58,954 nucleotides of DNA from Dehalococcoidia bacterium (lineage in GTDB: Bacteria > Chloroflexota > Dehalococcoidia > SZUA-161): contig DAOUMT010000079.1 of the NCBI GenBank assembly GCA_034409195.1, positions 1 through 58,954 on the forward strand, read 5' to 3'. The translations under genes were made by a program, and so were the position numbers. The notes below the pieces were generated by a model. It saw only the letters and a program-made list of their open reading frames with translations, ran no database searches and was not told the DNA's origin. Shown here one piece after another: positions 11,505 through 41,399 of the stretch; the first letter of the stretch is position 1; each line of letters opens with the position of its first letter.

Positions 11505-12308
11505 TCAGGTAATAAACACATTTGCCGCCATCCAGGCCGATGCTATGATAATAACGACAGCCAGCAGCATCCTGAGGCGCCGCACATCAGTCTTGAGCGA
11601 GATGCTGGGCCCGATACGCGCACCGACGAAGGCGGCGGCAGCCAGAGGCAGTGCTGACCAGGGGTCGAAGTGTCCGCTGACTACGTGGCCGAGGAAGCCA
11701 GCGACGGCTGCTATTCCGACATAGGTTGAGGAGATACCCACCCCGATGCGCATAGGGCATCCTGCCAGCAACACCAATAGGGGCAAGACGAACAGACCTC
11801 CACCGACTCCAATCATGCCGGCGATGAAGCCGGCTAGGGCCGTGCCTGGCAAAATCAGAAGCATCGAGATGCTGTACTTGTACTCGCCGCAACATCTGTT
11901 CGAGCATCCCCAGGCGGGAACGAACCTGGGCCGAGTCGCAGTATCTGACGCAGGCCGCAGCAGGAAGATCGCTGCAATAATAAGCACTGCGGCAAAGATG
12001 ATTTTCAACACGGTCACAGCTACAAACTGCGCGATATAGCCTCCGAGGAAAGAGGTTCCGAGAGCCAGTGGAGTGATAGCGAGCAGAAGCTTCCAGTCGA
12101 CTACCCTCTTTCGCGCATATATCAGAGTCGCGGAGAGACTGGCAACTATGATGATAAAAAGGCTGGTGGTGGAGGCAGTATGGAAGCTTACTCCCAGTGC
12201 CAGTAGGATGGGCACGTAGAGCGCCCCCCCTCCCTGGCCCACCATGGAGAAGACTATGGACACAGCTATCATGGCCGCGCAGCCGATGATTACAGCTGTC
12301 GCTGACAT
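11505..12308 (-). CDS. TauE/SafE (DUF81) family anion permease
   Basis: 267-aa, 7-8 TM ORF with Gly-rich motifs in both halves (VGQGGGALYVPILL and IGVGGGLFVLPLLVL), typical of TauE/SafE. Confidence 0.8.
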   Translation of the reverse strand: MSATAVIIGCAAMIAVSIVFSMVGQGGGALYVPILLALGVSFHTASTTSLFIIIVASLSATLIYARKRVVDWKLLLAITPLALGTSFLGGYIAQFVAVTVLKIIFAAVLIIAAIFLLRPASDTATRPRFVPAWGCSNRCCGEYKYSISMLLILPGTALAGFIAGMIGVGGGLFVLPLLVLLAGCPMRIGVGISSTYVGIAAVAGFLGHVVSGHFDPWSALPLAAAAFVGARIGPSISLKTDVRRLRMLLAVVIIIASAWMAANVFIT

Positions 12309-12360
12309 CTCGCACCTCCAGGGTTATATAGACCTGAATGCCATATCTCGGATGAAAAAC

Positions 12361-12954
12361 CTATGAGGAATATCCGGAGCACGGTATGCAGTGTGGTTCA
12401 CCACCGACCATCCGCACGTACCTCTCAAAAACGTACTCGCCGCACTTAACACACTTGGCCTTGTTGAAAGACCCCTTCACCCGGTTGAACTGATAGTCCG
12501 GAAGCTTTTCGACCTTGAAGACTTTATCATCATGCTGAGCTTCAGTCCACTCTATGGCTTCGTTGGTAACATTGGCCGGAACCTGCGATGGCTCGACCCC
12601 CTTCTTGCGATAGGCGAAGAACTCCACCTTGCCGAAATCATCCAGGAAGTCTGCTTTCAATGACAACCGCACTGCTCCCTTCTCCGGATGGTAGAAGACC
12701 GCCGCCAGCTTCCCCCAGAAGGTTTTCTCCATCAGCGATTTGCCGTAGGTAGCGCCAGTGGCTATCTGGATGCCGTCCATGAGGCAAGTCTGGGGATGTC
12801 CTACCCCCAGCTCAGGAATGACAAAGAATCCGTGGTCTTTCTCGTGCTCCACTCCAAGTTCCTGCATTGCCCTCTTTGCCAGACGGTAGCCGAGTGGCAT
12901 GAAAGGGCAACGGTGGCCGTGAAACTCCCATGCCCACTTTGGTACAGTATCCAT
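12361..12954 (-). CDS. FmdE/FwdE-domain protein with C-terminal zinc ribbon
   Basis: ORF 12361-12981. The ATG at 12954 lies 6 nt after AGGAGG. FHGHRCPFMPLGYRLAKRA is the FmdE signature. The C-terminal CVKCGE...HCIPC is a CxxC..CxxC ribbon. Confidence 0.7.
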   Translation of the reverse strand: MDTVPKWAWEFHGHRCPFMPLGYRLAKRAMQELGVEHEKDHGFFVIPELGVGHPQTCLMDGIQIATGATYGKSLMEKTFWGKLAAVFYHPEKGAVRLSLKADFLDDFGKVEFFAYRKKGVEPSQVPANVTNEAIEWTEAQHDDKVFKVEKLPDYQFNRVKGSFNKAKCVKCGEYVFERYVRMVGGEPHCIPCSGYSS

Positions 12955-13046
12955 TTCCGTCCTCCTTCTAATAATTGACATTCGTAGACTTGCAAAGTCC
13001 TTGCTTAGATGCGCAATAACGCATATTCATGGCAAAAAGAGAGAGG

Positions 13047-13406
13047 CTATTTAGCACATTTCCGTAGGCAGCCAGGGCCTACGCGCCTGGCTTTTTTGAG
13101 CCGCTCTCTATCCTGTGCCACCAGTTCATTGCCCTTAAGCCCTTTCCTCACAGCCTCGACCAGGTCGGCGTAATACGGCTTAAATCCTTCTCTGTCAATG
13201 GAATACAACGACCACAGGCCGTCCTTCCTCAGTTTGAGGAAACCGGCATCGTAAAGTGCGCTCAGGTTGCGGGAGGCCCTGGTCTGTGAGATGTCCAGCG
13301 CCTGCATAACCTCACAAACGCAGCACTCTCTCACCAGGAGCAGGTTTAATATCCTGAGCCTGGTCTCGTCAGACAGCGCTCTCATAGCTTTGACCAAATC
13401 CCTCAT
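13047..13406 (-). CDS. arsR: ArsR/SmtB-family metalloregulator with ECCVCE (As(III)-type CVC) motif
   Basis: 119-aa ORF. LSDETRLRILNLLLVRECCVCEVMQALDISQTRASRNLSAL is a canonical ArsR wHTH. The Cys pair sits at the position of the E. coli ArsR ELCVCDL motif. Confidence 0.85.
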   Translation of the reverse strand: MRDLVKAMRALSDETRLRILNLLLVRECCVCEVMQALDISQTRASRNLSALYDAGFLKLRKDGLWSLYSIDREGFKPYYADLVEAVRKGLKGNELVAQDRERLKKARRVGPGCLRKCAK

Positions 13407-13640
13407 TCCATCTCCCTATATGCGCATCTACGCTTATAATATAAGACATTTTATAGTTGCTGTCAAGCAGCGGGAAGTGGTTATCCTATACCTCAGGTGG
13501 TATGGTTCTTGCTCTGCCAGTTTATTTCTGGCCGTTGCTTCGGAGGACAATTTGAATCTTAAATAAAGGAAAGTAAACAGATAGCTTACTTGAACTCAGC
13601 AACACGCTCTTCAAGCATCCTGCACCGTTGGCCTGGAGGC

Positions 13641-13778
13641 TTACCTTTTCCGGGCGCATAGCTCCTTATATTTCTCGACGCATACAATTTTGTCACCGCA
13701 CTTGGGGCAAAACTTCCAGTCCGACCTTATTTCAGAGCCGCACTTCTTGCATTTTACTACTGCTGCTATTACTGGCAT
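13641..13778 (-). CDS. Possible 45-aa zinc-ribbon protein
   Basis: Not in the ORF track. My hand translation is MPVIAAVVKCKKCGSEIRSDWKFCPKCGDKIVCVEKYKELCARKR (CxxC-N11-CxxC), with a TAA at 13641-13643. It sits 10 nt after the stop of the upstream ArsR-family gene. Confidence 0.35.
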   Translation of the reverse strand: MPVIAAVVKCKKCGSEIRSDWKFCPKCGDKIVCVEKYKELCARKR

Positions 13779-13790
13779 CTGGGCTCTCCT

Positions 13791-14171
13791 TTAAGTTTTA
13801 TCTTCTTGCTTCGCCTTCAGGGGGCAATGTTTAGTGCAAAATTCTTCGTCTAGGCTTTGCTCTTCTATCGTTAAAGCTTGCAGAACCTCCTCGCGCCAGC
13901 GCTCCAGAGTATCGTGGTTAATAAAGTAGTGAATGTGGTAGCCGCGCCTCAGCCCTTTGACCAGTCCGGCAGATTTAAGCACCCGTATATGCTGGGAAAC
14001 GGCAGACTGGGTAACTCCCAGAAAACCTGCCAGCGCGTTCACACACAGTGCATCAGGGTCGCGCTGTTGACAGAGCAATCTCACCAGTCTCAGACGGGTA
14101 GGGTCGGCGAGTGCGCTGAAAACCGCAGCTTGCTCTTCAATATTGCCCTGTCTATTTTCTTTCATATTCAT
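13791..14171 (-). CDS. ArsR/SmtB-family transcriptional regulator
   Basis: 126-aa ORF. ALADPTRLRLVRLLCQQ...LAGFLGVTQSAVSQHIRVLKSAGLV is the ArsR wHTH. No SD precedes the ATG. Confidence 0.8.
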   Translation of the reverse strand: MNMKENRQGNIEEQAAVFSALADPTRLRLVRLLCQQRDPDALCVNALAGFLGVTQSAVSQHIRVLKSAGLVKGLRRGYHIHYFINHDTLERWREEVLQALTIEEQSLDEEFCTKHCPLKAKQEDKT

Positions 14172-14393
14172 CAGCTTATAAGCATATACTAATATATTTT
14201 AATTATCTGTTCAAGACCGCTTTTTGTCAAGTGCTCTTATCAGAAAATTAGGTAGAAATACGTATCTTCAACGGACAATAAGATACTAGCCCTGCTCGGA
14301 TAAGATATGCTACAAATAGAGCTGGTGGAATATAGGCGTTCTCTCTGGGTAGCCAGAGTGTGGTGGTACCTGAACAGAAAGGAGTCTGAAAAC

Positions 14394-15056
14394 ATGAAAA
14401 TCAACCTGAAAGACAAAGCCTATGAAGTGGACGAGTTGGGTTTCTTAACAAATCATGACCATTGGGACGAAAATTTCGCATCGGAAATGGCATCTAGATT
14501 GAAAATACCCGAAGGGCTCTCCAAGAGGCACTGGGATGTAATTTATTTCATTAGAAAATATTTTTTCAAAAACGGCGTATGCCCTAGAGTTTTTGAAACA
14601 TGCAAAGCAAATAGATTAGCCATCCGAGACTTAGAGAAGCTCTTTCCCAGCGGCTACCAGCGAGGTGCCTGCCTGCTGGCAGGAATAAGTTACAAAGACC
14701 GTCTGGTGAATTACTACGGGGAACCCGTTCCTATACGTGTTGCTGAAAAAGAAGTGGCTAAACCAAAAGGTAAAGTTTACAGAATAGACGTATATGGATT
14801 TTTGGTGGATCCCGGTGAATGGGACGAAGACTACGCTGTAAATAAAGCATTGGAGATGAAGATTCCGGGAGGATTAACCAAAAAACACTGGGAAATAATA
14901 CAATATCTTCGCGATAGCTGGCAAAAGAATAGCCTTGTACCGACCGTATACGAGTGCTGTAAATCAAACAATATCGAGTCAGAGGACCTGGGAAAGCTAT
15001 TTCCAGACGGCTATCAAAGGGGAGCGATAAAAATCGCAGGATTAAGAATAATATAA
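14394..15056 (+). CDS. Tandem (fused) DsrC/TusE-like protein with two domains, both lacking the C-terminal Cys arm
   Basis: ORF 14307-15056. The ATG at 14394 follows AAAGGAG. Residues 1-100 and 126-220 each align with the DsrC encoded at 25009-25329 (E/DxxGFL, HW.VI.F.R, LFP.GYQRGA..AG). Domain 1 keeps GAC; domain 2 has GAI. Neither has the PKPTGCV tail. Confidence 0.75.
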   Translation: MKINLKDKAYEVDELGFLTNHDHWDENFASEMASRLKIPEGLSKRHWDVIYFIRKYFFKNGVCPRVFETCKANRLAIRDLEKLFPSGYQRGACLLAGISYKDRLVNYYGEPVPIRVAEKEVAKPKGKVYRIDVYGFLVDPGEWDEDYAVNKALEMKIPGGLTKKHWEIIQYLRDSWQKNSLVPTVYECCKSNNIESEDLGKLFPDGYQRGAIKIAGLRII

Positions 15057-15058
15057 GC

Positions 15059-15178
15059 CCTGCTCATTATACTCAGGATGATTTACCTACATCCTGAACC
15101 GCTTTGAACTCATGCCTAGAATTATTAGATTTTTCTAGGCATTATTGCCTATGCCATAATAAGCCGATTAGCCGATGT
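15059..15178 (+). promoter_or_regulatory. Copy A of a ~120-nt conserved upstream element shared with the sat operon; contains a candidate promoter and palindromic operator
   Basis: About 96 of 121 columns are identical, by hand alignment, to the reverse complement of 38649-38769. Inside: -35-like TTGAAC (15104-15109), a 16-nt spacer and -10-like TAGATT (15126-15131). These are bracketed by the inverted repeat TGCCTAGAA (15113-15121) / TTCTAGGCA (15133-15141). Confidence 0.6.
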
Positions 15179-15242
15179 CTGCTACCTAGCCTTAGAGTAT
15201 CATTTTCCTTAGGTTGTCGAATCACTATGTTATTGTTAAACC

Positions 15243-15776
15243 ATGGCTCTGAAAACGCTTTTAACGCAGAATAAAAACTCCATTTTGCAAAGATGGTTCA
15301 ATCTGATAGCAGATACGTATCCCACAGGCGTCTCAGGCTTTCTCAAGGATAACGACAGATTCACCAATCCGGTAGGCCATACAATCTCCCAGGAAATAAA
15401 CTCTCTTTATGATGAACTACTGCAGGACCGGGTAGACTCCGATAAAGCCGCAGCATCTCTGGACAATATTATTAAAATCAGAGCAGTTCAAGACTTCTCC
15501 CCTCAGAAAGCTATCTCCTTTGTTTTCCTGTTGAAAAAAGCTATAACAGATGAACTGGGGAGCGAGCTAGAGAAAAAACAGTCTTTCGGGGAATGGCTGA
15601 AGTTTGAGCCCGGGATAGACAAACTGGCATCTATAGCGTTCGACAAATACATGGAAAGCCGCGAGAAAATCTGCGAACTCCGGGTAAATGAGGTGAGGGC
15701 TGACAGAGAGATAGCTTTCAGGCTGCTCAGGTTGATGGGAGGTAAAAACGGGAAGCACGGCGAGGCTGTGGAATGA
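15243..15776 (+). CDS. RsbRD_N-like (globin-type sensor N-terminal) domain protein, translationally coupled to dsrM
   Basis: 177-aa ORF. ILQRWFNLIADTYPTGVSGFLKDNDRFTNPVGHTISQEINSLYDELL matches my memory of the RsbRD N-terminal domain. ATGA overlap with dsrM. No SD precedes its ATG. Confidence 0.5.
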   Translation: MALKTLLTQNKNSILQRWFNLIADTYPTGVSGFLKDNDRFTNPVGHTISQEINSLYDELLQDRVDSDKAAASLDNIIKIRAVQDFSPQKAISFVFLLKKAITDELGSELEKKQSFGEWLKFEPGIDKLASIAFDKYMESREKICELRVNEVRADREIAFRLLRLMGGKNGKHGEAVE

Positions 15777-16705
15777 ATGCCGTGTATCTTGTTTTCGGAA
15801 TCATCATACCCTATGCGGCCCTCTTCATCTTCGTCGTAGGACTTGTCTATCGCGTCGTGAGATGGGCAAGCTCGCCTGTTCCCTTCCGCATACCTACAAC
15901 CTGCGGGCAGCAAAAATCTCTCCCCTGGATCAAGTCAAAAAAAATCGAAAACCCTTACAACACTGCCGGCGTCATCGGCAGGATGGCACTCGAAGTGCTC
16001 GTGTTCCGGTCGCTGTTGCGGAACACGAAAACCGAACTGAGACGAGGGATTCAGAAACTCGTCTACAAAGACAGCAAGTTACTCTGGCTGGGGGCATTCG
16101 TCTTCCACTGGAGTCTTCTTATCATTCTACTGAGGCATTTAAGACTGTTCGTCGAGCCTGTGCCCGCTTTTGTCATCTCCCTTCAGAGATTGGATGGCCT
16201 TTTTCAGATAATGTTACCCACTCTGTACGTAACCGATATCCTCATTGTATTGGCACTGGGTTACCTCTTACTGAGAAGGATGGCGGGTGCGCAACTACGC
16301 TATATCTCACTGTTCTCCGACTACTTCGCAGTCTTGCTGCTGTTGAGCATAGCTCTTTCCGGCATTTTTATGCGGTACATTTTCAGAGTAGACCTAGTGA
16401 GTGTAAAGGAACTGGCGCTGGGAGTCTTGAGCTTCCATCCCTCTATTCCTGCAGCCGGAATCGGCCTGGCCTTTTATGTCCATCTTTTCCTCGTCTGTAC
16501 TCTATTTGCCTACTTCCCATTCAGTAAAATGGTTCACATGGCAGGGATCTTCCTCAGCCCGACGAGAAACCTGGCGAACAACAGCCGCATGCGCAGGCAT
16601 ATTAACCCCTGGAACTACTCTGTCAAGGTTCACACATATCAAGAGTGGGAGGACGAGTTCAGAGAGCACATGAAAGACGCCGGGTTGCCTTTGGAAAAGG
16701 AATGA
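15773..16705 (+). CDS. dsrM: DsrM, NarI-like membrane dihaem cytochrome b of the DsrMKJOP complex
   Basis: 310-aa multi-TM ORF immediately upstream of dsrK. The RVVRWASSPVPFRIPTTCGQQKS motif and conserved His in the TM helices fit DsrM. Confidence 0.85.
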   Translation: MNAVYLVFGIIIPYAALFIFVVGLVYRVVRWASSPVPFRIPTTCGQQKSLPWIKSKKIENPYNTAGVIGRMALEVLVFRSLLRNTKTELRRGIQKLVYKDSKLLWLGAFVFHWSLLIILLRHLRLFVEPVPAFVISLQRLDGLFQIMLPTLYVTDILIVLALGYLLLRRMAGAQLRYISLFSDYFAVLLLLSIALSGIFMRYIFRVDLVSVKELALGVLSFHPSIPAAGIGLAFYVHLFLVCTLFAYFPFSKMVHMAGIFLSPTRNLANNSRMRRHINPWNYSVKVHTYQEWEDEFREHMKDAGLPLEKE

Positions 16706-16706
16706 G

Positions 16707-18314
16707 ATGACGGATACAACAAAAAAACCAGAAGAATTATTGAAGTTAGATTACACCCCCCCTGAAAAGGGTTGGATGGAAACCCCCGTTGATTTCAAAA
16801 AGGGCACCTATTGCTACAGTGCGCCGCAGAAACATCAGGAATACCTGGGACTCCCGTATCCGAGACAATGGCAACCTTTCGATGCCGACTGGAAGCTGCC
16901 AGAGAACTGGAAACAGATAATACTCGAAGGAATGAATGAGCGCCTGAAAAAATATCGGTCCTTTCGGCTCTACATGGATATCTGCGTACGATGCGGTGCC
17001 TGCGCTGACAAGTGTCACTTCTTCATCGGCACCGGAGACCCCAAGAATATGCCGGTGCTCAGGGCCGAGCTGCTCCGGTCAGTTTACAGGAAGTATTTCA
17101 CCCTGGGGGGAAAGCTCTTCGGCAAAATAGGTGGAGCCAGGGAACTGACAGAGGACGTGCTGAAAGAATGGTACTACTACTTCTATCAGTGTACTGAGTG
17201 TCGCCGCTGCTCGGTCTTCTGCCCGTATGGCATTGATACCTGTGAAATAACGATGATGGCGCGAGAGCTGCTCAGCCTGGTCGGCTGCAACGTAGGCTGG
17301 GTCATCGAGCCGGCGTCTAACTGTTTCAGGACAGGAAATCACCTCGGCGTACCGCCTCACGCGTTTAAGGACACGCTGGATTTTGCCATAGATGAGGTAG
17401 AGGACCTAACTGGCGTCAAAGTTGAAGCTTCTGTCAACAGGAAAGGCGCGGAACTGCTCTTCATCACTCCTTCCGCCGATTACTTCGCCAGCCCCCACTG
17501 GTATACCTTCCTGGGATATTTAATGCTTTTCCATGAAATCGGGCTTGATTACACCTGGAGCGCCTATGCTTCTGAAGGAGGTAATTTCGGCCTCTTCCAC
17601 TCCGCTGAGATGATGAAAAGGCTGAATGCTAAGATGTACGCCGAAGCCAAAAGGCTGGGAGTGAAATGGATCCTCGGGGGAGAGTGCGGCCATATGTGGA
17701 GGGTTGTCCACCAGTATATGAACACCGTCAACGGGCCTGCCGATTTTCTGGAGGAACCGGCATCTCCGATAACGGGTACGAAGTTTGAAAACGCGAAAGC
17801 CACAAAAATGGTTCATATCTGCGAATTTACCGCCGACCTTATCAAGAACAATAAACTGAAGCTAAATCGCAGCCGCAATGACCATTGGAAGATGACCTTC
17901 CATGATTCCTGCAATCCGGCCAGGGCTATGGGGCTTTTTGAGGAGCCGAGATACATAATCAAGAATGTATGCAACAATTTCTATGAGATGCCGGAGAATA
18001 CCATAAAAGAATACACCTTCTGCTGCGGCAGCGGGGCCGGGCTGGGTTCGGATGAGAATATAGAAATGAGGTTGAGGGGCGGCCTTCCCAGGGCGAACGC
18101 TGTAAAGTATGTTAAGGAAAAACACGGAGTGAATCTCCTCACCTGTATTTGCGCCATTGATAGAGCCGTGCTTCCAACCCTACTGCAATACTGGGTTCCC
18201 GGGGTAGAGGTCAGCGGTCTTCATGAACTGGTTGGGAACGCGCTGGTGATGAAGGGCGAGAAGGAGCGAACAACCGATATGCGCGGCACACCCTTCAAAA
18301 AAGAGGGAAGCTAA
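16707..18314 (+). CDS. dsrK: DsrK, HdrD-like catalytic FeS subunit
   Basis: 535 aa. Two ferredoxin motifs (CVRCGACADKCH, CTECRRCSVFCPYG) and a C-terminal CCG domain (HDSCNPAR...FCCGSGAG). Confidence 0.9.
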   Translation: MTDTTKKPEELLKLDYTPPEKGWMETPVDFKKGTYCYSAPQKHQEYLGLPYPRQWQPFDADWKLPENWKQIILEGMNERLKKYRSFRLYMDICVRCGACADKCHFFIGTGDPKNMPVLRAELLRSVYRKYFTLGGKLFGKIGGARELTEDVLKEWYYYFYQCTECRRCSVFCPYGIDTCEITMMARELLSLVGCNVGWVIEPASNCFRTGNHLGVPPHAFKDTLDFAIDEVEDLTGVKVEASVNRKGAELLFITPSADYFASPHWYTFLGYLMLFHEIGLDYTWSAYASEGGNFGLFHSAEMMKRLNAKMYAEAKRLGVKWILGGECGHMWRVVHQYMNTVNGPADFLEEPASPITGTKFENAKATKMVHICEFTADLIKNNKLKLNRSRNDHWKMTFHDSCNPARAMGLFEEPRYIIKNVCNNFYEMPENTIKEYTFCCGSGAGLGSDENIEMRLRGGLPRANAVKYVKEKHGVNLLTCICAIDRAVLPTLLQYWVPGVEVSGLHELVGNALVMKGEKERTTDMRGTPFKKEGS

Positions 18315-18682
18315 TGTACGACAAAGGCAAAATCATTGCCGGAATTGTAATCTTCCTAATTCTGATTACCTTTCCTATATGGTATCTCACGGCTCACAGT
18401 CAAACCAGTCATGTGCCCCAACTCCAGGCTGCCGCGGGTAATGAGTGTGTAGAGTCCACAAGCTACATGTTAGATAACCACATGAAATTGCTAGATGAGT
18501 GGAGGACTCTGGTTGTCCGTGATGGGAATGACACCTACATAGCAAGCAATGGGCAAGAGTGGAATATAAGCCTGACCGGGACGTGTCTGACTTGCCATGA
18601 TAAGACCCAATTCTGCGACCAATGCCACACCTATGAAGGAGTAACTCCCAATTGCTGGAGCTGTCACTTTGCCGGATATTAA
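18314..18682 (+). CDS. dsrJ: DsrJ, trihaem cytochrome c
   Basis: 122 aa. N-terminal TM anchor and three CxxCH motifs (CLTCH, CDQCH, CWSCH). Start overlaps the dsrK stop. Confidence 0.85.
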   Translation: MYDKGKIIAGIVIFLILITFPIWYLTAHSQTSHVPQLQAAAGNECVESTSYMLDNHMKLLDEWRTLVVRDGNDTYIASNGQEWNISLTGTCLTCHDKTQFCDQCHTYEGVTPNCWSCHFAGY

Positions 18683-18693
18683 TACCTGCCTTG

Positions 18694-18727
18694 CCTATGA
18701 GGGAGTAACTCCCAATTGCTGGAGTTG
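18694..18727 (+). repeat. 34-bp direct repeat of the dsrJ 3' end (second copy, in the dsrJ-dsrO spacer)
   Basis: 18630-18663 (cctatgaaggagtaactcccaattgctggagctg) versus 18694-18727 (cctatgagggagtaactcccaattgctggagttg). Two mismatches, 64-nt offset. Confidence 0.85.
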
Positions 18728-18773
18728 CCAAATCAGTGACACCGGCAGTGGCAATATTACTGGGGAGCAGTAG

Positions 18774-19544
18774 ATGGACGTCGATAGGCGAGGATTTATA
18801 AAAATGGCGGGAATTGCCTTCGTTGGGCTTCTCGCAGTAAAGCCGATTATTGATGTATTCTCGAGAACTGAAGCGCCGAAAAAGTCTGTAGTAGCGGAAG
18901 TATCGAGCCAGACAAAGTGGGGCATGGCTATTAAAATCGCTAACTGCAAAGATGGATGCACAGAATGCATAGCTGCCTGTAATTCCGTCCATAACGTGCC
19001 TGACATCCCTAACCCGAAGCATGAGATTAAATGGATATGGGACGTTAATTATGAGGATGTATTCCCTGAACAAAACAGCCCCTTCCTTGCCAATTCGTTG
19101 AAAGGGCTACCCGTTCTCGTACTCTGCAATCACTGTGATCACCCCCCCTGCGCGAGGGTTTGCCCGACAGCCGCTACGTGGAAGCGCGCAGACGGAATAG
19201 TTATGATGGACTATCACAGGTGTATCGGATGCCGATACTGCATGGCTGCCTGTCCCTACGGGGCACGCAGCTTCAACTGGGTAGACCCGCGACCCTACAT
19301 CAAGCAGATCAATCCAGATTACCCGACGCGAACCAAAGGTGTGGTGGAGAAGTGCGACTTCTGTGAGGAAAGGCTTGCCAAAGGCTTGATTCCGGCATGC
19401 GTAGAAGCGTGCACGGAGAAGGCTCTGGTTTTTGGCGACCTGAATGACCCAAGCTCGGATATCAGAAAGCTCCTCGCAGCAAACTACAGCATTCAGCGTA
19501 AAGCTGAACTGGGGACAGGGCCCAACGTTTATTATGTAATCTAG
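18774..19544 (+). CDS. dsrO: DsrO, periplasmic FeS ferredoxin-like subunit with Tat signal
   Basis: 256 aa. Twin-arginine motif MDVDRRGFIKMAG. Multiple CxxCxxCxxxC clusters (CNHCDHPPCARVCP, CIGCRYCMAACP). Confidence 0.85.
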   Translation: MDVDRRGFIKMAGIAFVGLLAVKPIIDVFSRTEAPKKSVVAEVSSQTKWGMAIKIANCKDGCTECIAACNSVHNVPDIPNPKHEIKWIWDVNYEDVFPEQNSPFLANSLKGLPVLVLCNHCDHPPCARVCPTAATWKRADGIVMMDYHRCIGCRYCMAACPYGARSFNWVDPRPYIKQINPDYPTRTKGVVEKCDFCEERLAKGLIPACVEACTEKALVFGDLNDPSSDIRKLLAANYSIQRKAELGTGPNVYYVI

Positions 19545-19554
19545 GATAGTCATA

Positions 19555-20745
19555 ATGATAGAAAAAGCGTTTACCGGAAGTCGAAAATATTGGGCATGGA
19601 TACTTTTCCTGCTTGTTATTATAGCTATAGGTTTTGGCTACTATCTTTTGCAATGGTACCGTGGATTAGGAGTAACCGGCATGAGCCGGGATGTCTCCTG
19701 GGGCCTTTATATAGCCAATATGACCTTCCTCGTCGGAGTAGCAGCCGGGGCGGTCATGGTAGTCTTGCCCTACTACCTGCATAACTACAAAGCATTCGGA
19801 AAGGTTACTACTTTCGGTGAGTTCCTGGCTGTAGCTGCGGTAATCATGTGCATGTTGTTCGTCACTATAGACCTTGGTCAACCGACGCGACTTGTAAATC
19901 TCTTTATCCACCCACAACCCCACTCCATTCTTTTCTGGGACATAGTTGTCCTGTCAATTTACCTTCTGCTTAATCTGGTGGTAGGCTGGTATTTACTGAG
20001 GTCCCAGTATTATGGGGAACAGCCGAAGGCCTGGGTCAAACCACTGATCCTGATTTCCATCCCCTGGGCCATCAGCATTCACACGGTTACAGCTTTCATC
20101 TATAGCGGACTGGCTTCGAGGCCTTTCTGGTTGACAGCGCTTATGGCGCCCCGCTTCCTATCTTCAGCGTTCGCTGCCGGCCCCGCTCTGCTAATCATAG
20201 CCTGCCTGGTCATGAAAAGATTCGCCCATTTCGATGTCGGGAAGGAAGCGCTGCAAAAGCTGGCACAAATTGTGCTCTATGCAACAATCATCACTGTGTT
20301 CTTCCTCATAGTAGAGGGTTTTACCGTCTATTATAGTCAGGTTCCGGAGGACATGAGTCACCTTGACTACTTCTTCGTAGGCCTGAATGGACAAACAACA
20401 CTTATACCCTGGATATGGACTTGCCTTATATTCTGGGTAGCAGCCATCGTCTTGCTGATCAACCCCAGGACACGCAAGAATGAAAAAACTCTGGTACTCG
20501 CTGCCGCCATGGTATTCGTTTCCATGTGGCTAGACAAGGGATTGGGTTTGCTTGTGCCCGGATTTACTCCCTCGCCTCTAGGTACAATAACTCAATACCT
20601 GCCTACAGTGCCCGAGATATTAATCTCTCTGATGGTCTGGGGAATAGGTGCCCTGATACTTACCATCTTCTATAAAATAACCATCGGGGTCAAAGAAGAG
20701 AGGGGAGAAGAGGAATCACATGCTATCTCTTTCTCATCGCAGTGA
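19555..20745 (+). CDS. dsrP: DsrP, NrfD/PsrC-like integral membrane subunit
   Basis: 396-aa, ~10 TM ORF following dsrO. NrfD-like topology. Confidence 0.85.
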   Translation: MIEKAFTGSRKYWAWILFLLVIIAIGFGYYLLQWYRGLGVTGMSRDVSWGLYIANMTFLVGVAAGAVMVVLPYYLHNYKAFGKVTTFGEFLAVAAVIMCMLFVTIDLGQPTRLVNLFIHPQPHSILFWDIVVLSIYLLLNLVVGWYLLRSQYYGEQPKAWVKPLILISIPWAISIHTVTAFIYSGLASRPFWLTALMAPRFLSSAFAAGPALLIIACLVMKRFAHFDVGKEALQKLAQIVLYATIITVFFLIVEGFTVYYSQVPEDMSHLDYFFVGLNGQTTLIPWIWTCLIFWVAAIVLLINPRTRKNEKTLVLAAAMVFVSMWLDKGLGLLVPGFTPSPLGTITQYLPTVPEILISLMVWGIGALILTIFYKITIGVKEERGEEESHAISFSSQ

Positions 20746-25008: not shown

Positions 25009-25329
25009 TTGCCGAAGGCTAAACTTGCTGGAATGGAAATCGAGATCGATGAGGACGGTTTCATCCAGGAACCGGACAAGTGGTCCAAAGAGGTGGCCGA
25101 GGACCTGGCCAAAGAGGAGAGCAGCGTTCACCCCATGGGCGAGGACCACTGGAGACTAGTAAACTATATCAGGGACTACTACATCAAATTTGGGGTAGCT
25201 CCGCCGGTGCGGATGCTGTGCAAACAGAATAAATTCGAACTGAAATATGTTTACGAGATGTTTCCCAAGGGGCCAGCGGCAGGGGCTTGTAAGGTAGCCG
25301 GACTGCCCAAACCTACCGGTTGTGTGTAG
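25009..25329 (+). CDS. dsrC: DsrC with both conserved C-terminal cysteines
   Basis: 106 aa. The TTG start lies 7 nt after GAGGAGG. Ends ...GACKVAGLPKPTGCV, the canonical CysB-X10-CysA arm. Confidence 0.92.
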   Translation: MPKAKLAGMEIEIDEDGFIQEPDKWSKEVAEDLAKEESSVHPMGEDHWRLVNYIRDYYIKFGVAPPVRMLCKQNKFELKYVYEMFPKGPAAGACKVAGLPKPTGCV

Positions 25330-26956: not shown

Positions 26957-27934
26957 TTACAACTTATTAAACCCATCAATAACCAGTTTGACCCCTGCAC
27001 CGATCATTACCAGTATAATCATCCATCGGATAAATTGCGCCTTCACTGTGAACATTAACCTGGCCCCTATGCTCGTTCCAATCACTACTCCAATTATGCA
27101 CGCTACAGCGAATAGTGGAAAGATACCTCCACGCATGATGTAGGGCCAGACAGCAGCAGTGTCACCCATGCCTATCAAGACCTTACTGGAAGCAGCCGCA
27201 ACCTTAAGCGGAGCAAGCATGACCAGATTGAATACTGGAACCATAGCCCAGCCGGCCCCCACGCCAAACATACCCGAGACTATTCCGCATCCGCAAAACA
27301 GAATGATCCCGATGGGTGCCTTGGTAACCTTATAGTGTACAACCTTATCCATCGATTGTTCCCAGTAAGACATGGCTAGCCCCAGCCTTTTTGTAAAGCC
27401 GTCCTCTTTCTTTACTTCGGGATACTCGACTTTCTTCCCACCAAAAAGTATCAGAAATGCAATGAATATTACCAGGAAACCCAAAATAAGCCTTATCAAA
27501 GCCTCGCCGAAATCACCCGCTGAAGCTTCAACATAGCCAGCTAGTAGAGCACCCACTACAGCAAAGATAGTGTAAGGGAGGGCTGCAAAGAAGAGCATCT
27601 TTACGTTCGCCAGCCCCCTGCGCAGGAACGGACGAGCGGCAATTAGTGACCCGGCCATAGCTACGACCAATCCAGTTGCCCGGATAATGAACGAATTTAT
27701 GGGTGTAAAACCCATCATCAGAGGTGTGAACACAACCCCACCGCCCACACCACCCAGCACAGCAATAATACCTATTACTGTGCATATAGCTACAAACACG
27801 AAGAAGAACGCCACTGGACTTAAACCCATACCGCTTGGGTCTGCTGTTTCTGCAGCATAGCCTATGCCACTGCTGAACAGAAATATCATTACAGCAAGGA
27901 GGACGACGACGGAAAGCTTTGATAGCCTCATCAT
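26957..27934 (-). CDS. TauE/SafE (DUF81) family anion permease, last large gene of the qmo operon
   Basis: ORF 26957-28039. The probable start MMRLSKLSVVVLL at 27934 avoids overlap with qmoC. Contains the duplicated Gly-rich motifs GGVGGGVVFTPLMM and FGVGAGWAMVPVF. Confidence 0.75.
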   Translation of the reverse strand: MMRLSKLSVVVLLAVMIFLFSSGIGYAAETADPSGMGLSPVAFFFVFVAICTVIGIIAVLGGVGGGVVFTPLMMGFTPINSFIIRATGLVVAMAGSLIAARPFLRRGLANVKMLFFAALPYTIFAVVGALLAGYVEASAGDFGEALIRLILGFLVIFIAFLILFGGKKVEYPEVKKEDGFTKRLGLAMSYWEQSMDKVVHYKVTKAPIGIILFCGCGIVSGMFGVGAGWAMVPVFNLVMLAPLKVAAASSKVLIGMGDTAAVWPYIMRGGIFPLFAVACIIGVVIGTSIGARLMFTVKAQFIRWMIILVMIGAGVKLVIDGFNKL

Positions 27935-27953
27935 CTTAATAATGAATCTCAGG

Positions 27954-29084
27954 TTACCTAACTGCTCTCCCGACTTGCCTGGCATAGGCCATAGCCAGCG
28001 TCCTGTAAATGATGTGAGCTCCTTTGGAGAATGGAGCATATATAAGCAGACTGAACAAAAGCCAGAGGTGAACCAGATATACCGAGTAGGTCGCTGTGGA
28101 CAGCTTAGCCAGTCTAACCACTTCGGTAGCTATCCCGCTGATAGTAACTAAGGAAAGCAGCAGGATGAGAAACCAGTCGAAATAGGTCGTATTGCTTCTG
28201 TTACTACCTGTGGTGGAAAACCTCCTGTAGACTGCCAACACACAGCCAGCAAGAAGCAGAAGAGAGCCCAGATTCCCTGCTATCTTGATAGGACTGGTCA
28301 ATGGATATGGTGAATCGATCCCCGATAAATGATAGACCGCGCCTAGAAAGGCAGCGAGCAGGAGAAGGATAAATCCGTAGAAGATCGCTAAATGCGTATA
28401 ACGGTTGATTTTATTCGCCTGACATTTGCCGAAATCGCCATGTTTAAATATATCTACTGCGGCAAAGGCAAAGCTCTTGAGCCAGCCACTCCGGGCGCCG
28501 GATGTCGGCGGTGGGTCTGCTTCAAACTCGTTGATACCTTTCCAGAATCTGACGCCCCCGACAGCAGCCACGACTGCGACGAAGGCAACTATTATAGCCA
28601 TACCGATGTAGGCGTCGGGGTTTGGAATCATATGATTTTCGACAATCGCACCTTTGGGAAGCGTAAGGTCACCCGCGATACCGAGAAAGGCAAATAGAAG
28701 CGCCGCAGGAAGGGCAAGCATAGGCAGCAGATACATAGGTGATGAAAATGCTTTTCTCAAAAAGCCCGGGAGAGCATAACTCATAATTGCATAGCTTCTG
28801 ACGGCAGCCAGGACATCTCCCGGTTTGGCGTCCCGGGGACAGTATGCTGTGCAGTCATTACATCGATGGCATAGCCACACATCGGGGTCCTTCAGCAATC
28901 TATCCTTCAACCCCCGCTGAGCCCACATCATCTCTTTCCTTGGGAAAGGTTTACCGTCAGGAGACAGAGAACAGACCACCGAGCAGGTGCCGCACTGAAA
29001 GCATTTTTTCAGTGACTCGCCACCAAGGCCAATTACATCTCTGACGAATTCACTGTCAGGTTTAATAACGTTTCGTTTCTCCAT
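27954..29084 (-). CDS. qmoC: QmoC, HdrC-like FeS domain fused to an HdrE/NarI-like membrane cytochrome b
   Basis: 376 aa. CFQCGTCSVVCS and CHRCNDCTAYCP at the N-terminus, followed by about 6 TM helices. Confidence 0.85.
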   Translation of the reverse strand: MEKRNVIKPDSEFVRDVIGLGGESLKKCFQCGTCSVVCSLSPDGKPFPRKEMMWAQRGLKDRLLKDPDVWLCHRCNDCTAYCPRDAKPGDVLAAVRSYAIMSYALPGFLRKAFSSPMYLLPMLALPAALLFAFLGIAGDLTLPKGAIVENHMIPNPDAYIGMAIIVAFVAVVAAVGGVRFWKGINEFEADPPPTSGARSGWLKSFAFAAVDIFKHGDFGKCQANKINRYTHLAIFYGFILLLLAAFLGAVYHLSGIDSPYPLTSPIKIAGNLGSLLLLAGCVLAVYRRFSTTGSNRSNTTYFDWFLILLLSLVTISGIATEVVRLAKLSTATYSVYLVHLWLLFSLLIYAPFSKGAHIIYRTLAMAYARQVGRAVR

Positions 29085-38492: not shown

Positions 38493-38648
38493 ACTATCTC
38501 CTTATTTCTTTAAATTCTGGCATTTACTGGGATTTAAGGCAATTACTCTCAGGTTAACCCTCTTACTACGCATGAGAGTATTCGCGGATTATCATCCCCC
38601 TTTCTGCCCAACTTTGTAATAAATGTTAGCATTTACATTTATAAGTAT

Positions 38649-38769
38649 ACATCGACTAATCGGCTTATTCTCATTTAAGCAATAATGCTTAGAAAAATAT
38701 AAGAATTTCTAGGCATATGTTCGAAGTTGTTTCGGATGTAGGCTAATCGCCTTGAGCATAATGAGCAGG
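38649..38769 (-). promoter_or_regulatory. Copy B of the ~120-nt conserved upstream element (upstream of sat); candidate promoter plus palindromic operator
   Basis: Its reverse complement aligns with 15059-15178 at about 80% identity. Minus-strand TCGAAC (38719-38724), a 17-nt spacer and TATATT (38696-38701). Inverted repeat TGCCTAGAA (38707-38715) / TTCTAAGCA (38686-38694), with one mismatch. It ends 157 nt upstream of the sat ATG. Confidence 0.6.
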
Positions 38770-38840: not shown

Positions 38841-39542
38841 ATGGATAAGAGTTTAGAAAAAATCAGAATCATCATTGCCGATGACCATGCAGTGGTGCGT
38901 GAAGGCACCCGGGAGCTGCTGCAAAAGGAACCAGACCTGGAGGTTGTGGGCGAAGCCGGTGATGGTGAAGAAGCAGTGAGGCTCGTCAAAGAGCTTATTC
39001 CGGATGTTGCCATATTGGACATCGCCATGCCCGGCCTCAACGGTATTGAAGCAACCAAGCAGATCAAAGCCATATTACCGAGCACGGCAGTGCTTATATT
39101 GACCGCTTACGAGTACGACCAGTACGTCTTTGCCCTTCTCGAGGCAGGAGCTGCCGGCTATCTGCTAAAGGATGTCCCCAGCCAAAAGCTGGTTGAGGCC
39201 GTTCGTGCAGTGCACGCCGGTGAATCGGCACTTCACCCGGTTATCGCGCGCAAGGCACTCAACCACTTTGTGCATAGTTCTAATAAGGCAGGTGAACTGC
39301 AAACCCAACCCCTGACTGATAGGGAAGCGGAGGTGCTCCGGCTAGCTGCCAAGGGGCAAAGCAACAGGCAAATAGCTAATAAGCTGGGGCTGAGCGTACG
39401 CACCGTTCAGGCTCATCTGAGCAATGTCTTCAACAAGCTCAAGGTTGGTTCGCGCACCGAGGCGGTGATCTCCGCATTAAAGACCGGACTGCTTACCTTG
39501 CAGGATATAACTGATTCCTTGGACGAGTCAGAAGCTCCATGA
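38841..39542 (+). CDS. NarL/LuxR-family response regulator
   Basis: 233 aa. REC domain (IRIIIADDHAVVREG...DVAILDIAMPGLNG) plus LuxR HTH (LTDREAEVLRLAAKGQSNRQIANKLGLSVRTVQAHLSNVFNKL). Divergent from sat. Confidence 0.9.
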   Translation: MDKSLEKIRIIIADDHAVVREGTRELLQKEPDLEVVGEAGDGEEAVRLVKELIPDVAILDIAMPGLNGIEATKQIKAILPSTAVLILTAYEYDQYVFALLEAGAAGYLLKDVPSQKLVEAVRAVHAGESALHPVIARKALNHFVHSSNKAGELQTQPLTDREAEVLRLAAKGQSNRQIANKLGLSVRTVQAHLSNVFNKLKVGSRTEAVISALKTGLLTLQDITDSLDESEAP

Positions 39543-39722
39543 CGCTGTTTACTACCGACACAAATATATTCGTTATGTTAAGAGGAGATTGTAAATACCA
39601 CATCTCAGTTCTAAATAAATTCAAACAGGTGGCTCACAACTCCAAAACTGAAAACAATTATATTTTATCAAACTTCATAATTACAGCCCAATGTTAACAT
39701 CTCTTTTTAAGAGGAGGAGGTT

Positions 39723-41399
39723 ATGGATAAGAGGAAGGACGACGGGCCTCAGAAAGCGCCATCAAGGCTAATAGTTAACTGGGATGAATTGCAGCAGCAC
39801 GTTTCTGTTTTCAAGGAAAACGAGCAATCACTGGCGGCTTTGAACGCCATCTCCGACCTTATTAATCAGCCTCTGGAAATCCGACAGGTTCTAACGCTTG
39901 TGGCTGATAAGACCATGGAAGTAATGAGTGTGGATGCTATTCTTATATTCCTCATAGATGAAGAAACGCAGGACCTTCGCCTGGAAGTAAGCAAGGGAGT
40001 CTCGGAGGAATTCGTGGCTGGCGTCAGGAAAATGAAAGTGGGGGAAGGCTTTAATGGAACAGTAGCGCAAACAGGGAAACCCCTATTTGTGGATGATGCC
40101 AGTACCGATCCGCTGCTAAGCAGACGGGTGGTAGTTGTCGAGGGAATAAGGTCACAGCTTATTGTTCCTTTGCGGTCCAGAGGCAAAATGGTGGGAACCA
40201 TCTGTGTTGCCAGGCGCAAGCCGGGGAAATTCCAGATGGCTGAAGTGGCGTTGCTGAGCAGTATTGGAAACGCCCTCGGAGCTGGCCTCGAGAATGCTAT
40301 ACTTTACCAGGAGATGGAACAGGCGCTAACGTTATTGCGACAGTCCGAGGAAAAATATCGAGACCTTTTCGAGAACGCCTATGATGCTATCTGGCTGCAT
40401 GATTTGGATGGCAATCTGCTCGCTGCGAATAAGGCATGCGAAAAGCTCACCGGTTATACGTCAGATGAATTACTTAATGTACATATCTGCCAACTGATTC
40501 CCGAGTGCAGCCGGTCGAGTATCGAGCAGACAGAGCGTAAATTAATTCTGGACCAGCATGTTGAACATCGTTGTGAAGGAGAACTGATTAAGAAAGGTGG
40601 AACGAAGGCTCTCGTCCAGATTACAACAAGCTTGATAGCTCACGATGGCGAAATAGTCGGTTTCCAGCATTGCGCCCGAGATATAACGGAAGAGAGACAA
40701 CTGCAGCAAAACCTTCGCTATTACCTGCAGCAGGTCACCCGGGCTCAGGAGGAAGAACGTAAGCGAATCGCTAGGGAATTGCATGATGAAACTCTGCAAA
40801 ATCTAATTGCTATCTCGCGTCAGTTGGAGAAGATCACTTCCAGCGATGCGTTATGGGAGGAGAGCGTTGAAGCCGTACGCAGCTTCAAAAAACAAATCGA
40901 AGTTGCAGTGCAGGAGATACGCCGTTTCAGCCACGACCTGCGCCCGTCGGTGCTGGACGACCTCGGACTGCTGCCTGCGCTGGAACTGCTGGCTGACGAT
41001 CTGAACAAACAAGGAATTACTACTAGTTTCAAGGTAACCGGCGAATCAAGGCGGCTTGCGCCTGAGGAAGAGGTGATGCTATTTCGTATTGCACAGGAGG
41101 CAGTGAGGAACATCTGGCGCCATTCCCATGCTTCGTCCGCAGAACTTGTCATAGAGTTTAGCGATGCTTTGGTCAAACTGAATATCAAAGACGACGGCAG
41201 CGGTTTTAGATTACCGAAAAGGGTAGGAGATCTGGCTGGCCTGGGAAAGCTGGGACTGGCAGGAATGTACGAGCGAGCCAGATTGCTGGGCGGAACTCTA
41301 ACGCTGACATCCAACGAAGGCAAGGGAACAACAGTAACTGTCGAAGTGCCCGTTTTGGCCTTCAAGGAAAGGAAAACTATCAGCTTTGGGGATAAATGA
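39723..41399 (+). CDS. Sensor histidine kinase (GAF-PAS-HisKA_3-HATPase)
   Basis: 558 aa. GAF-like region, PAS (YRDLFENAYDAIWLHD), H-box RIARELHDETLQNL, and HATPase with G-box DDGSGF...GLAGMYERARLLGG. Confidence 0.88.
   Translation: MDKRKDDGPQKAPSRLIVNWDELQQHVSVFKENEQSLAALNAISDLINQPLEIRQVLTLVADKTMEVMSVDAILIFLIDEETQDLRLEVSKGVSEEFVAGVRKMKVGEGFNGTVAQTGKPLFVDDASTDPLLSRRVVVVEGIRSQLIVPLRSRGKMVGTICVARRKPGKFQMAEVALLSSIGNALGAGLENAILYQEMEQALTLLRQSEEKYRDLFENAYDAIWLHDLDGNLLAANKACEKLTGYTSDELLNVHICQLIPECSRSSIEQTERKLILDQHVEHRCEGELIKKGGTKALVQITTSLIAHDGEIVGFQHCARDITEERQLQQNLRYYLQQVTRAQEEERKRIARELHDETLQNLIAISRQLEKITSSDALWEESVEAVRSFKKQIEVAVQEIRRFSHDLRPSVLDDLGLLPALELLADDLNKQGITTSFKVTGESRRLAPEEEVMLFRIAQEAVRNIWRHSHASSAELVIEFSDALVKLNIKDDGSGFRLPKRVGDLAGLGKLGLAGMYERARLLGGTLTLTSNEGKGTTVTVEVPVLAFKERKTISFGDK

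Follow-up and report, generated by a model that had tools for sequence, protein, structure and literature searches.

A tandem DsrC-fold protein without the redox-active arm

The gene at positions 14394-15056 of the window (the whole 58,954-nucleotide stretch of Dehalococcoidia DNA analysed here) encodes a 220-amino-acid protein made of two fused DsrC-fold modules. Judged from its sequence, this protein cannot do the job of DsrC as the trisulfide substrate of DsrAB and DsrK, and it belongs to a large family whose members may instead be thiol-bearing sensors or co-regulators acting through partner transcription factors—a reading that we favor while placing it somewhat below an even chance. The plus-strand frame runs from an ATG at 14394 through 220 codons to a TAA stop at 15054-15056 and is supported by Pfam and NCBIfam matches and by orthologues in the three closest loci (L001-L003). 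It is preceded, 9 nt 5' of the start on the same strand, by a ribosome-binding site (AAAGGAG, 14378-14384) that is kept in those three loci. The mechanical list of open reading frames offers an alternative upstream ATG at 14307; homologues begin at the position of 14394.

Both Pfam DsrC (PF04358; E 2.9e-41, 140.6 bits versus a cutoff of 24.9) and NCBIfam TIGR03342 (114.2 bits versus 53.5) matched the protein in two stretches, and together with AlphaFold2 and Foldseek they bear out the original prediction of two DsrC-fold modules. Module 1 (aa 1-103; 14394-14702, plus strand; Pfam stretch 5-99) and module 2 (aa 126-220; 14769-15053, plus strand) are 46% identical to one another. Each is also about 33% identical, over about 97 residues, to the product of our comparison gene, the canonical dsrC encoded 10 kb downstream (25009-25329, plus strand), which is assigned by Pfam, NCBIfam, and alignment, retains both arm cysteines, and ends in GACKVAGLPKPTGCV. 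The linker that joins the modules (aa 104-125; 14703-14768, plus strand) is predicted to be disordered, varies in length and sequence across the family, and is gapped in the alignment.

DsrC carries a CysA-S-CysB trisulfide for DsrAB and DsrMK by means of a flexible C-terminal arm. In functional DsrC this arm reads AGLPKPTGC(V/A), bearing CysA, with CysB ten residues upstream (PMC8477390), and neither module of the tandem protein has such an arm: PKPTGC is absent from both, in a direct reading of the sequence as well as in the alignment. Module 1 keeps the CysB position as Cys93 (14670-14672), within GACLLAG, after which the chain continues as the linker; module 2, without CysA and CysB, terminates in GAIKIAGLRII. 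Because DsrC can do its job only with CysA and CysB spaced by ten residues on a mobile arm, carriage of the trisulfide is impossible, as had been proposed. The earlier account of the cysteines holds for the missing arm cysteines and for the retained CysB-equivalent, and needs amending elsewhere, since module 1 also has Cys63 (14580-14582) and Cys70 (14601-14603) and module 2 has Cys188 and Cys189 (the latter at 14958-14960).

The predicted structures contained two confident DsrC folds (AlphaFold2 pLDDT 86.6 with 36 sequences and 88.7 with 149) separated by a segment with pLDDT below 50 at residues 104-123 in one model and 105-122 in the other, a predicted disordered linker. With the deeper alignment, pTM rose from 0.48 to 0.66, which lends moderate support to a modelled arrangement in which the two modules would be fixed relative to each other. 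The top PDB matches in Foldseek were the DsrC chains of DsrAB-DsrC complexes (2xsj_C, 3or1_C, and 2v4j_C), with target-normalised TM-scores of 0.86-0.89 and rmsd of 1.2-2.3 Å (1.2 Å to 2xsj_C); across matches including 1sau and 1yx3, E ranged from 2e-6 to 3e-5 and the target-normalised TM-score from 0.71 to 0.89. Direct-coupling analysis of 335 members gave no usable signal for module-module or cysteine contacts, with gap and clade effects dominating among about 200 effective sequences.

Distribution and conservation of the tandem family

A first homologue search (E <= 1e-5) recovered 356 clusters at 90% identity, and nearly all of the listed matches were 210-240 aa long and spanned the whole query at 50-60% identity. 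Using a Syntrophobacter member as query (E <= 1e-20), a second search recovered more than 1,071 clusters at 90% identity, and 417 encoding loci came to light when one genome per GTDB species was scanned. When 1.84 billion representatives at 50% identity were searched exhaustively with a profile, 73 clusters were retrieved at E <= 1e-30; thus, the tandem family is tight. The architecture of about 220 aa spans at least eight phyla. The best 80 of the 417 loci, all from metagenome-assembled genomes, belong to Dehalococcoidia/Chloroflexi, Desulfobacterales, Syntrophobacteraceae, Zixibacteria, Gemmatimonadota, Ignavibacteria, Acidobacteriota, NC10, Calditrichota, and Abyssobacteria, and no cultured isolate was found among the named matches within the best 98-120 of each of the three homologue searches.

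We computed conservation on 335 unique full-length members. At least 97% conservation was seen in 33 alignment columns, a pattern consistent with purifying selection, and the cysteines were retained at high frequency: Cys93 and Cys189 each in 99% of members, Cys63 in 93%, and Cys70 in 82%. Both modules carry LFP-x-GY-x-RG where DsrC has LFP-x-GP-x-(K/A)G, and most members end no more than three residues after AGL, typically as KIAGLRVR. That module-specific features are family-wide suggests one ancient duplication and fusion before the family spread. Adjacent copies are common, in arrays of two or three, and their mutual identity of only 48-65% marks them as paralogues that diverged long ago, not products of recent amplification. 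The modules differ in charge among the 335 members—module 1 is near neutral, with a mean charge of +1.5 on the third helix of its HTH-like motif, and module 2 is acidic (net -2.6), with a mean of -2.8 on the equivalent helix.

These data bear on the concern that the gene might be an artefact, either two adjacent dsrC-like genes read as one through an overlooked stop codon or a frameshift, or a duplicate in decay, an explanation for which we found no supporting point and to which we assign a negligible probability. The frame is continuous, and the same architecture recurs in hundreds of independent assemblies; the orthologues in L001-L003 (94, 86, and 83% identical to the window protein) and hundreds of further proteins share it, so the fusion is genuine, as originally predicted. 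The strongly conserved columns and the confident folding of both domains in the model also speak against an artefact.

Neighborhood of the gene in the window

The window contains a complete sulfate-reduction island, with the tandem gene at its edge. Before the gene, on the minus strand, are TauE, FmdE-like, ArsR, and ArsR genes; after it, a 186-nt spacer leads to dsrT-dsrMKJOP-dsrA-dsrB-dsrD-dsrN-dsrC, with qmo, aprBA, and sat on the minus strand farther along, followed by siroheme and haem biosynthesis genes. Gene order is the same in the closest locus, L001 (94%, a Chloroflexi metagenome-assembled genome). The gene had been described as directly upstream of dsrMKJOP; it does stand beside the operon (dsrT-dsrMKJOP, 15243-20745, plus strand, by domain annotation), but dsrT (15243-15776, with an RsbRD_N domain) intervenes before dsrM. 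Diverging from the tandem gene is an ArsR/SmtB-family regulator gene (13791-14171, minus strand), identified by Pfam HTH_5, NCBIfam NF033788, and synteny. L001 and L002 retain this pairing; in L003 the alignment covers only about half of the regulator, at 67% identity. We consider its product a candidate partner or controller of the tandem gene.

Between the tandem gene and dsrT lies a conserved element of about 125 nt (15059-15183, plus strand). A second copy, in the same relative orientation, precedes sat (38644-38769), and L001-L003 keep the element upstream of dsrT. The perfect palindrome of the element, ATGCCTAGAA-N11-TTCTAGGCAT (15112-15142), occurs in the window only upstream of dsrT and sat. 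An exact 10-mer, AGCCCTGCTC, lies upstream of the tandem gene (14288-14297, plus strand), and a second exact copy at 15056-15065 opens the downstream element, although we treat this coincidence as weak evidence. An Rfam scan of 13000-16000, which includes the element, gave no match, and a promoter and terminator scan, which yielded consensus-level matches only, found no terminator after the tandem gene. A gene for a NarL-type response regulator and that of its kinase diverge from the sat copy of the element. This regulator is a rival candidate for acting on the element and weakens the proposal that the tandem protein does so.

Base composition sets the tandem gene apart from its neighbors. It sits in a GC trough of 40-45% between flanks of 50-59%, and its GC3 of 0.43 is the lowest of the 36 genes in the window (canonical dsrC, 0.64). 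Measured against a reference set of dsrAB, aprAB, sat, and dsrC, its codon adaptation of 0.68 is nearly the lowest of the 36, compared with 0.75 for canonical dsrC. Low GC3 and low codon adaptation together argue against an abundant carrier.

Genomic context in related loci

Clustering the neighboring open reading frames of the best 80 of the 417 loci, and then annotating the clusters, revealed that the setting in the window is exceptional. Genes of the dsr system were found within 10 kb in 3 of the 80 loci (L001-L003, all from the window's own Dehalococcoidia clade) and were missing from the other 77, and dsrTMKJOP adjoined the gene only in that clade. [NiFe]-hydrogenase structural or hyp maturation genes were far more common, occurring within 7 kb in 21 of the 80 loci from at least six phyla, the structural genes representing group 3b HydBGDA-like, group 3c HdrB-HdrA-MvhDGA, and group 4 enzymes. 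The expectation that the protein is specific to the dsr system therefore fails for the family at large. In the Dehalococcoidia genome B_CHL_03, from a pit lake, one copy linked to dsr (L003) occurs together with another linked to hydrogenase genes (L004); the metatranscriptome supplement for this genome (as MAG CHL_03) gives dsrC per KEGG orthologue rather than per gene (PMC9326234).

This distribution also weighs on the idea that the protein is a decoy, which would throttle sulfite reduction by filling the sites on DsrAB or DsrK where DsrC docks while supplying no cysteines. The model would allow it, in that neither module departs far from the DsrC core fold (rmsd 1.2 Å to 2xsj_C), and the gene is near dsrTMKJOP and dsrAB in the window's clade. 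With 77 of the 80 related loci away from dsr genes, and with the substitution of GY-x-RG for GP-x-KG altering the region that leads into the arm, we regard such a decoy as very improbable.

Several other contexts recur. Hmc-like membrane complexes, with a multihaem cytochrome c and an FeS/NrfD-like subunit, are encoded directly 3' of the tandem gene in L014, L020, and L065; those in L014 and L020 also include a cytochrome b and a DsrK-like CCG subunit, and the L065 locus ends before the DsrK-like subunit. In two loci (L067 and L069), the gene is embedded in a sulfate ABC-transporter operon, in the order Sbp-CysT-CysW-gene-CysA. An APS kinase gene, a receiver-FNT channel fusion, or a rhodanese gene adjoins it in a few loci. 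Among the 80, response regulators are neighbors in 11 loci and histidine kinases in 8, and six Syntrophobacteraceae loci have an Rrf2 gene 195-300 nt upstream on the same strand.

Taken with the near-invariant cysteines, the hydrogenase and Hmc-like contexts could point to a thiol or redox partner, an alternative "heterodisulfide" for CCG-domain or hydrogenase-linked modules (DsrK, HmcF, or HdrB-HdrA-Mvh) in which Cys63, Cys70, Cys93, and Cys189 would take the place of the CysA/CysB arm. About 12 of the 21 hydrogenase or hyp loci have the tandem gene directly 3' on the same strand, HdrB-HdrA-MvhDGA clusters included; it immediately precedes Hmc-like complexes with a DsrK-like subunit at two loci (L014 and L020), and dsrTMKJOP in the window; conservation across phyla is very high; and multi-copy arrays are also seen for abundant carriers. 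Against this, the protein is without the arm that presumably enters DsrK-type CCG sites, CCG-domain proteins were found within 7 kb in only about 11 of the 80 loci (a weak indication, from a regular-expression count whose pattern misses DsrK itself), codon usage in the window is unlike that of the highly expressed dsrC, and fusions to Rrf2 domains, described below, have no obvious place in such a scheme. We consider a role of this kind unlikely, though it is the main rival to the reading that we favor.

Rrf2 fusions and a proposed co-regulatory role

Three proteins—P0124 (369 aa), P0134 (364 aa), and P0389 (369 aa)—begin with an N-terminal Rrf2 DNA-binding domain that is followed by DsrC and DsrC. 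They are diverged relatives, colinear at 43-46% identity (43% between P0124 and P0134), and six contigs carry P0389, the four of them shown coming from four samples. The colinearity of the proteins and the recurrence of P0389 across contigs indicate that the fusion is real and old, if rare (three clusters among more than 1,000). Proteins with three (P0004) and five (P0157) DsrC modules were also found.

The Rrf2 fusions, the adjacency of Rrf2 and ArsR genes, the low codon adaptation, and the near-invariance of Cys93 and Cys189 point to a thiol-based sensor or co-regulator acting with a DNA-binding partner, and the regulatory role suggested in the original prediction is accordingly plausible in view of the three fusions, the upstream Rrf2 genes of the six Syntrophobacteraceae loci, and the divergent ArsR-type gene. 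Response regulators and histidine kinases among the neighbors, the size and conservation of the family, and an analogy with CymR-CysK (below) also favor this reading. Several observations sit less comfortably with it. Fusions to Rrf2 are scarce, and an adjacent regulator is missing at most loci; arrays of 48-65% identical paralogues, and 50-60% identity across phyla despite varied neighbors, are unusual for regulators and would fit one universal enzymatic partner; and the gene's frequent position at the 3' end of hydrogenase or hyp operons, on the same strand, might just as well reflect a structural or redox partner.

Under the co-regulator reading, Cys93 of module 1 and Cys189 of module 2, helped by Cys63 and Cys70, would report sulfur or redox state, possibly by oxidation or persulfidation. 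The signal would then be passed to a partner DNA-binding regulator rather than the protein itself binding as a classical HTH dimer. In other lineages this partner may be of the Rrf2 type, and in the window it would probably be the divergently encoded ArsR-type protein. The copy in the Dehalococcoidia clade may have been recruited to the sulfate-reduction island, where its proposed role is the tuning of dsrTMKJOP and possibly of sat; in other genomes, paralogues accompany hydrogenase, Hmc-like complex, or sulfate-uptake operons.

The original prediction had instead suggested that the protein might bind DNA directly, with the two modules forming an intramolecular HTH pseudo-dimer on the two copies of the conserved element (here delimited as 15059-15183 and 38644-38769). 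A match to LexA_DNA_bind (PF01726) at residues 160-196 of module 2 hints in this direction, although it is sub-threshold (E 0.0015, 18.7 bits versus 23.7), and many members carry a precomputed assignment to this Pfam family. Foldseek matched LexA (3k2z; probability 0.97 over 54 residues, E 0.28), the rise in pTM hints at a defined arrangement of the modules, the window protein is basic (pI 8.65), and the DsrC of Allochromatium reportedly binds DNA. The family-wide pattern speaks against a symmetric pseudo-dimeric binder: module 2 is acidic, down to its would-be recognition helix, module 1 is near neutral, and the median pI of the family is 6.3. Moreover, the HTH-like core is common to catalytic DsrC and TusE, the palindrome is restricted to the regions upstream of dsrT and sat, with the NarL-type regulator and kinase diverging from the sat copy, and three lineages needed an added Rrf2 DNA-binding domain. 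Direct binding thus seems to us quite improbable.

Extending the co-regulator reading to the whole family, we can envisage an undescribed class of cysteine-based signalling proteins that would sense sulfur or redox state and coordinate the transcription of operons via Rrf2- or ArsR-type partners, sometimes fused, with the window copy dedicated to dsr and sat. We put this forward as a possibility that we doubt more than we believe. If it is true, hydrogenase, sulfate-uptake, and dissimilatory sulfate-reduction operons would be coordinated across many anaerobic phyla.

Relation to known systems

The tandem family is best classed as a variant within the DsrC/TusE/RspA family. It resembles DsrC in the fold of both modules (TM-score 0.86-0.89 at about 30-33% identity, for example to 2V4J chain C of Desulfovibrio vulgaris), in belonging to the same Pfam and TIGR families, in the CysB position of module 1, and in the dsr island of the window's clade. 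Unlike DsrC, its members have two modules per chain, neither C-terminal arm nor CysA (nor, in module 2, CysB), cysteines of their own (63, 70, and 189), and GY-x-RG motifs; most are encoded away from dsr genes, and the window copy has low codon adaptation. TusE (YccK of E. coli, in the sulfur relay for tRNA 2-thiouridine) shares superfamily and fold, but it is not a tandem protein and uses the arm cysteine CysA, which the tandem family lacks; in line with this, the TusE equivalog of NCBIfam (NF008562) scored well below its cutoff (59.1 bits versus 191).

RspA proteins, known as single-domain proteins of roughly 100 aa, form a branch that the 2014 review of DsrC by Venceslau et al. is said to have defined as DsrC homologues without functional arm cysteines. 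The tandem family is like them in having a DsrC fold without these cysteines and in its suspected regulatory role, and differs from them in its obligate tandem architecture, in conserved cysteines that are its own, and in the Rrf2 fusion of some members. The name RspA is also used in PMC8477390.

CymR of Bacillus subtilis is a cluster-less Rrf2 regulator that senses sulfur status only in complex with CysK. The likeness is one of working principle only: an Rrf2-family repressor depends on a sulfur-metabolism protein as partner, and in the tandem family cluster-less Rrf2 genes lie directly upstream and some members are fused to Rrf2. CysK, however, is an enzyme of unrelated fold, and the partnership between tandem proteins and Rrf2 is only proposed. 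DsrT and Cys-less DsrC homologues are only suspected regulators, and to our knowledge almost nothing is known about the regulation of dissimilatory sulfate reduction. DsrD and DsrT, too, are small products of dsr islands that have no catalytic activity and adopt helical or winged-helix-like folds; DsrD is an allosteric activator of DsrAB (PMC8794893), and DsrT is suspected of a regulatory role (PMC6018805). Their folds are unrelated to that of the tandem family, and both track dsr genes closely across taxa, whereas the tandem family mostly does not.

A tandem or fused DsrC is not mentioned in the comparative dsr literature that we searched (PMC6018805, PMC10504309, PMC8477390, PMC10591310, PMC6018796, PMC6129605, PMC13047784, and PMC9326234), in agreement with the original statement that a covalent tandem had not been described. 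We found no description of a tandem arm-less DsrC family, and an earlier mention in Venceslau et al. 2014 or Pereira et al. 2011 is possible. The window copy is an ordinary member of a family carried by at least 417 species. Their lineages are noted for the metabolism of sulfur and hydrogen (Desulfobacterota, Zixibacteria, Gemmatimonadota, Ignavibacteria, Acidobacteriota, and Dehalococcoidia), and the family is a lead into the regulation or redox wiring of that anaerobic metabolism. A fold taken from the central sulfur carrier of the pathway, minus its catalytic arm and sometimes fused to a DNA-binding domain, offers a concrete and testable entry point. Members are already in databases under misleading names, all of them generic ("TusE/DsrC/DsvC family sulfur relay protein" or "tRNA 2-thiouridine synthesizing protein E"), and marker-based surveys may count these proteins as dsrC although they are unable to act as DsrC.

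Sequence elements around the tandem gene and sat

An element of ~125 nt occurs twice in the window, upstream of dsrT (15059-15183) and upstream of sat (38644-38769), with ~80% identity between the copies and the same relative orientation. The counterpart upstream of dsrT is kept in L001-L003, the dsr-linked orthologous loci of the window's own clade. Inside the element lie a perfect palindrome, ATGCCTAGAA-N11-TTCTAGGCAT, at 15112-15142, and a direct repeat, GCCGAT-TA-GCCGAT; a search of Rfam returned no match for the element. Candidate regulators are encoded divergently from the sat copy, namely a response regulator of the NarL type together with a GAF-PAS kinase (38841-41399).

The tandem gene itself, which encodes two DsrC-fold modules, is bracketed by two exact copies of a 10-mer, AGCCCTGCTC—one at 14288-14297 and the other at 15056-15065, where it forms the start of the conserved element. 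Both positions are partially conserved in L001-L003. The 10-mer could serve as a shared operator half-site, or recombination could have left it behind as a scar. Base composition is also distinctive here: a GC trough (14050-15550; 40-45%, compared with 50-59% in the flanks) takes in the tandem gene and the spacer and runs on into the 5' part of dsrT, and the GC3 of the tandem gene (0.43) is the lowest among the 36 genes examined.

Tandem DsrC genes and multi-module proteins at other loci

Among the other loci with family members, two (L067 and L069) carry a sulfate ABC-transporter operon interrupted by the tandem gene, in the order cysW-[tandem DsrC]-cysA. Six more (L015, L016, L035, L036, L046 and L059) contain HdrA-MvhD-MvhG-MvhA-protease clusters, with the exception that HdrA was not detected in L035. 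An HdrB-like gene lies ahead of the cluster in L015, L036 and L059, hypA or hypAB comes after it in L036, L046 and L059, and Zixibacteria, Ignavibacteria and unclassified MAGs have between one and three tandem DsrC paralogues after these clusters.

Three homologues (P0124, P0134 and P0389; 364-369 aa; loci L081-L085) join an Rrf2 DNA-binding domain, containing a four-cysteine Fe-S-type motif, to both DsrC modules. These fusions share 43-46% pairwise identity, and their genes are surrounded by housekeeping genes (tilS, ftsH); L081 also includes genes whose products bear a sorting domain for type IX secretion (Por_Secre_tail). Other proteins carry additional modules—three in P0004 (359 aa) and five in P0157 (541 aa), the latter assigned to a separate subfamily in which LFPYGP...AC-like motifs are kept.

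Other features of the dsr island and its flanks

A 44-nt direct repeat (18623-18666 and 18687-18730; copies 86% identical) straddles the dsrJ stop codon and codes for an NCWSC haem-binding-like motif; it may mean that a C-terminal haem site has been duplicated, that the frame has shifted or that dsrJ is truncated. The flanks of the island (11505-13406 and 26957-29084) encode two TauE/SafE sulfite-exporter-like proteins, an FmdE-like zinc-finger protein, a DUF169 protein and a second ArsR, which bears an ECCVCE motif. In the 375-aa protein encoded at 27954-29084, a 4Fe-4S domain occurs together with a weak nitrate-reductase-gamma-like match; this protein may be QmoC-like.
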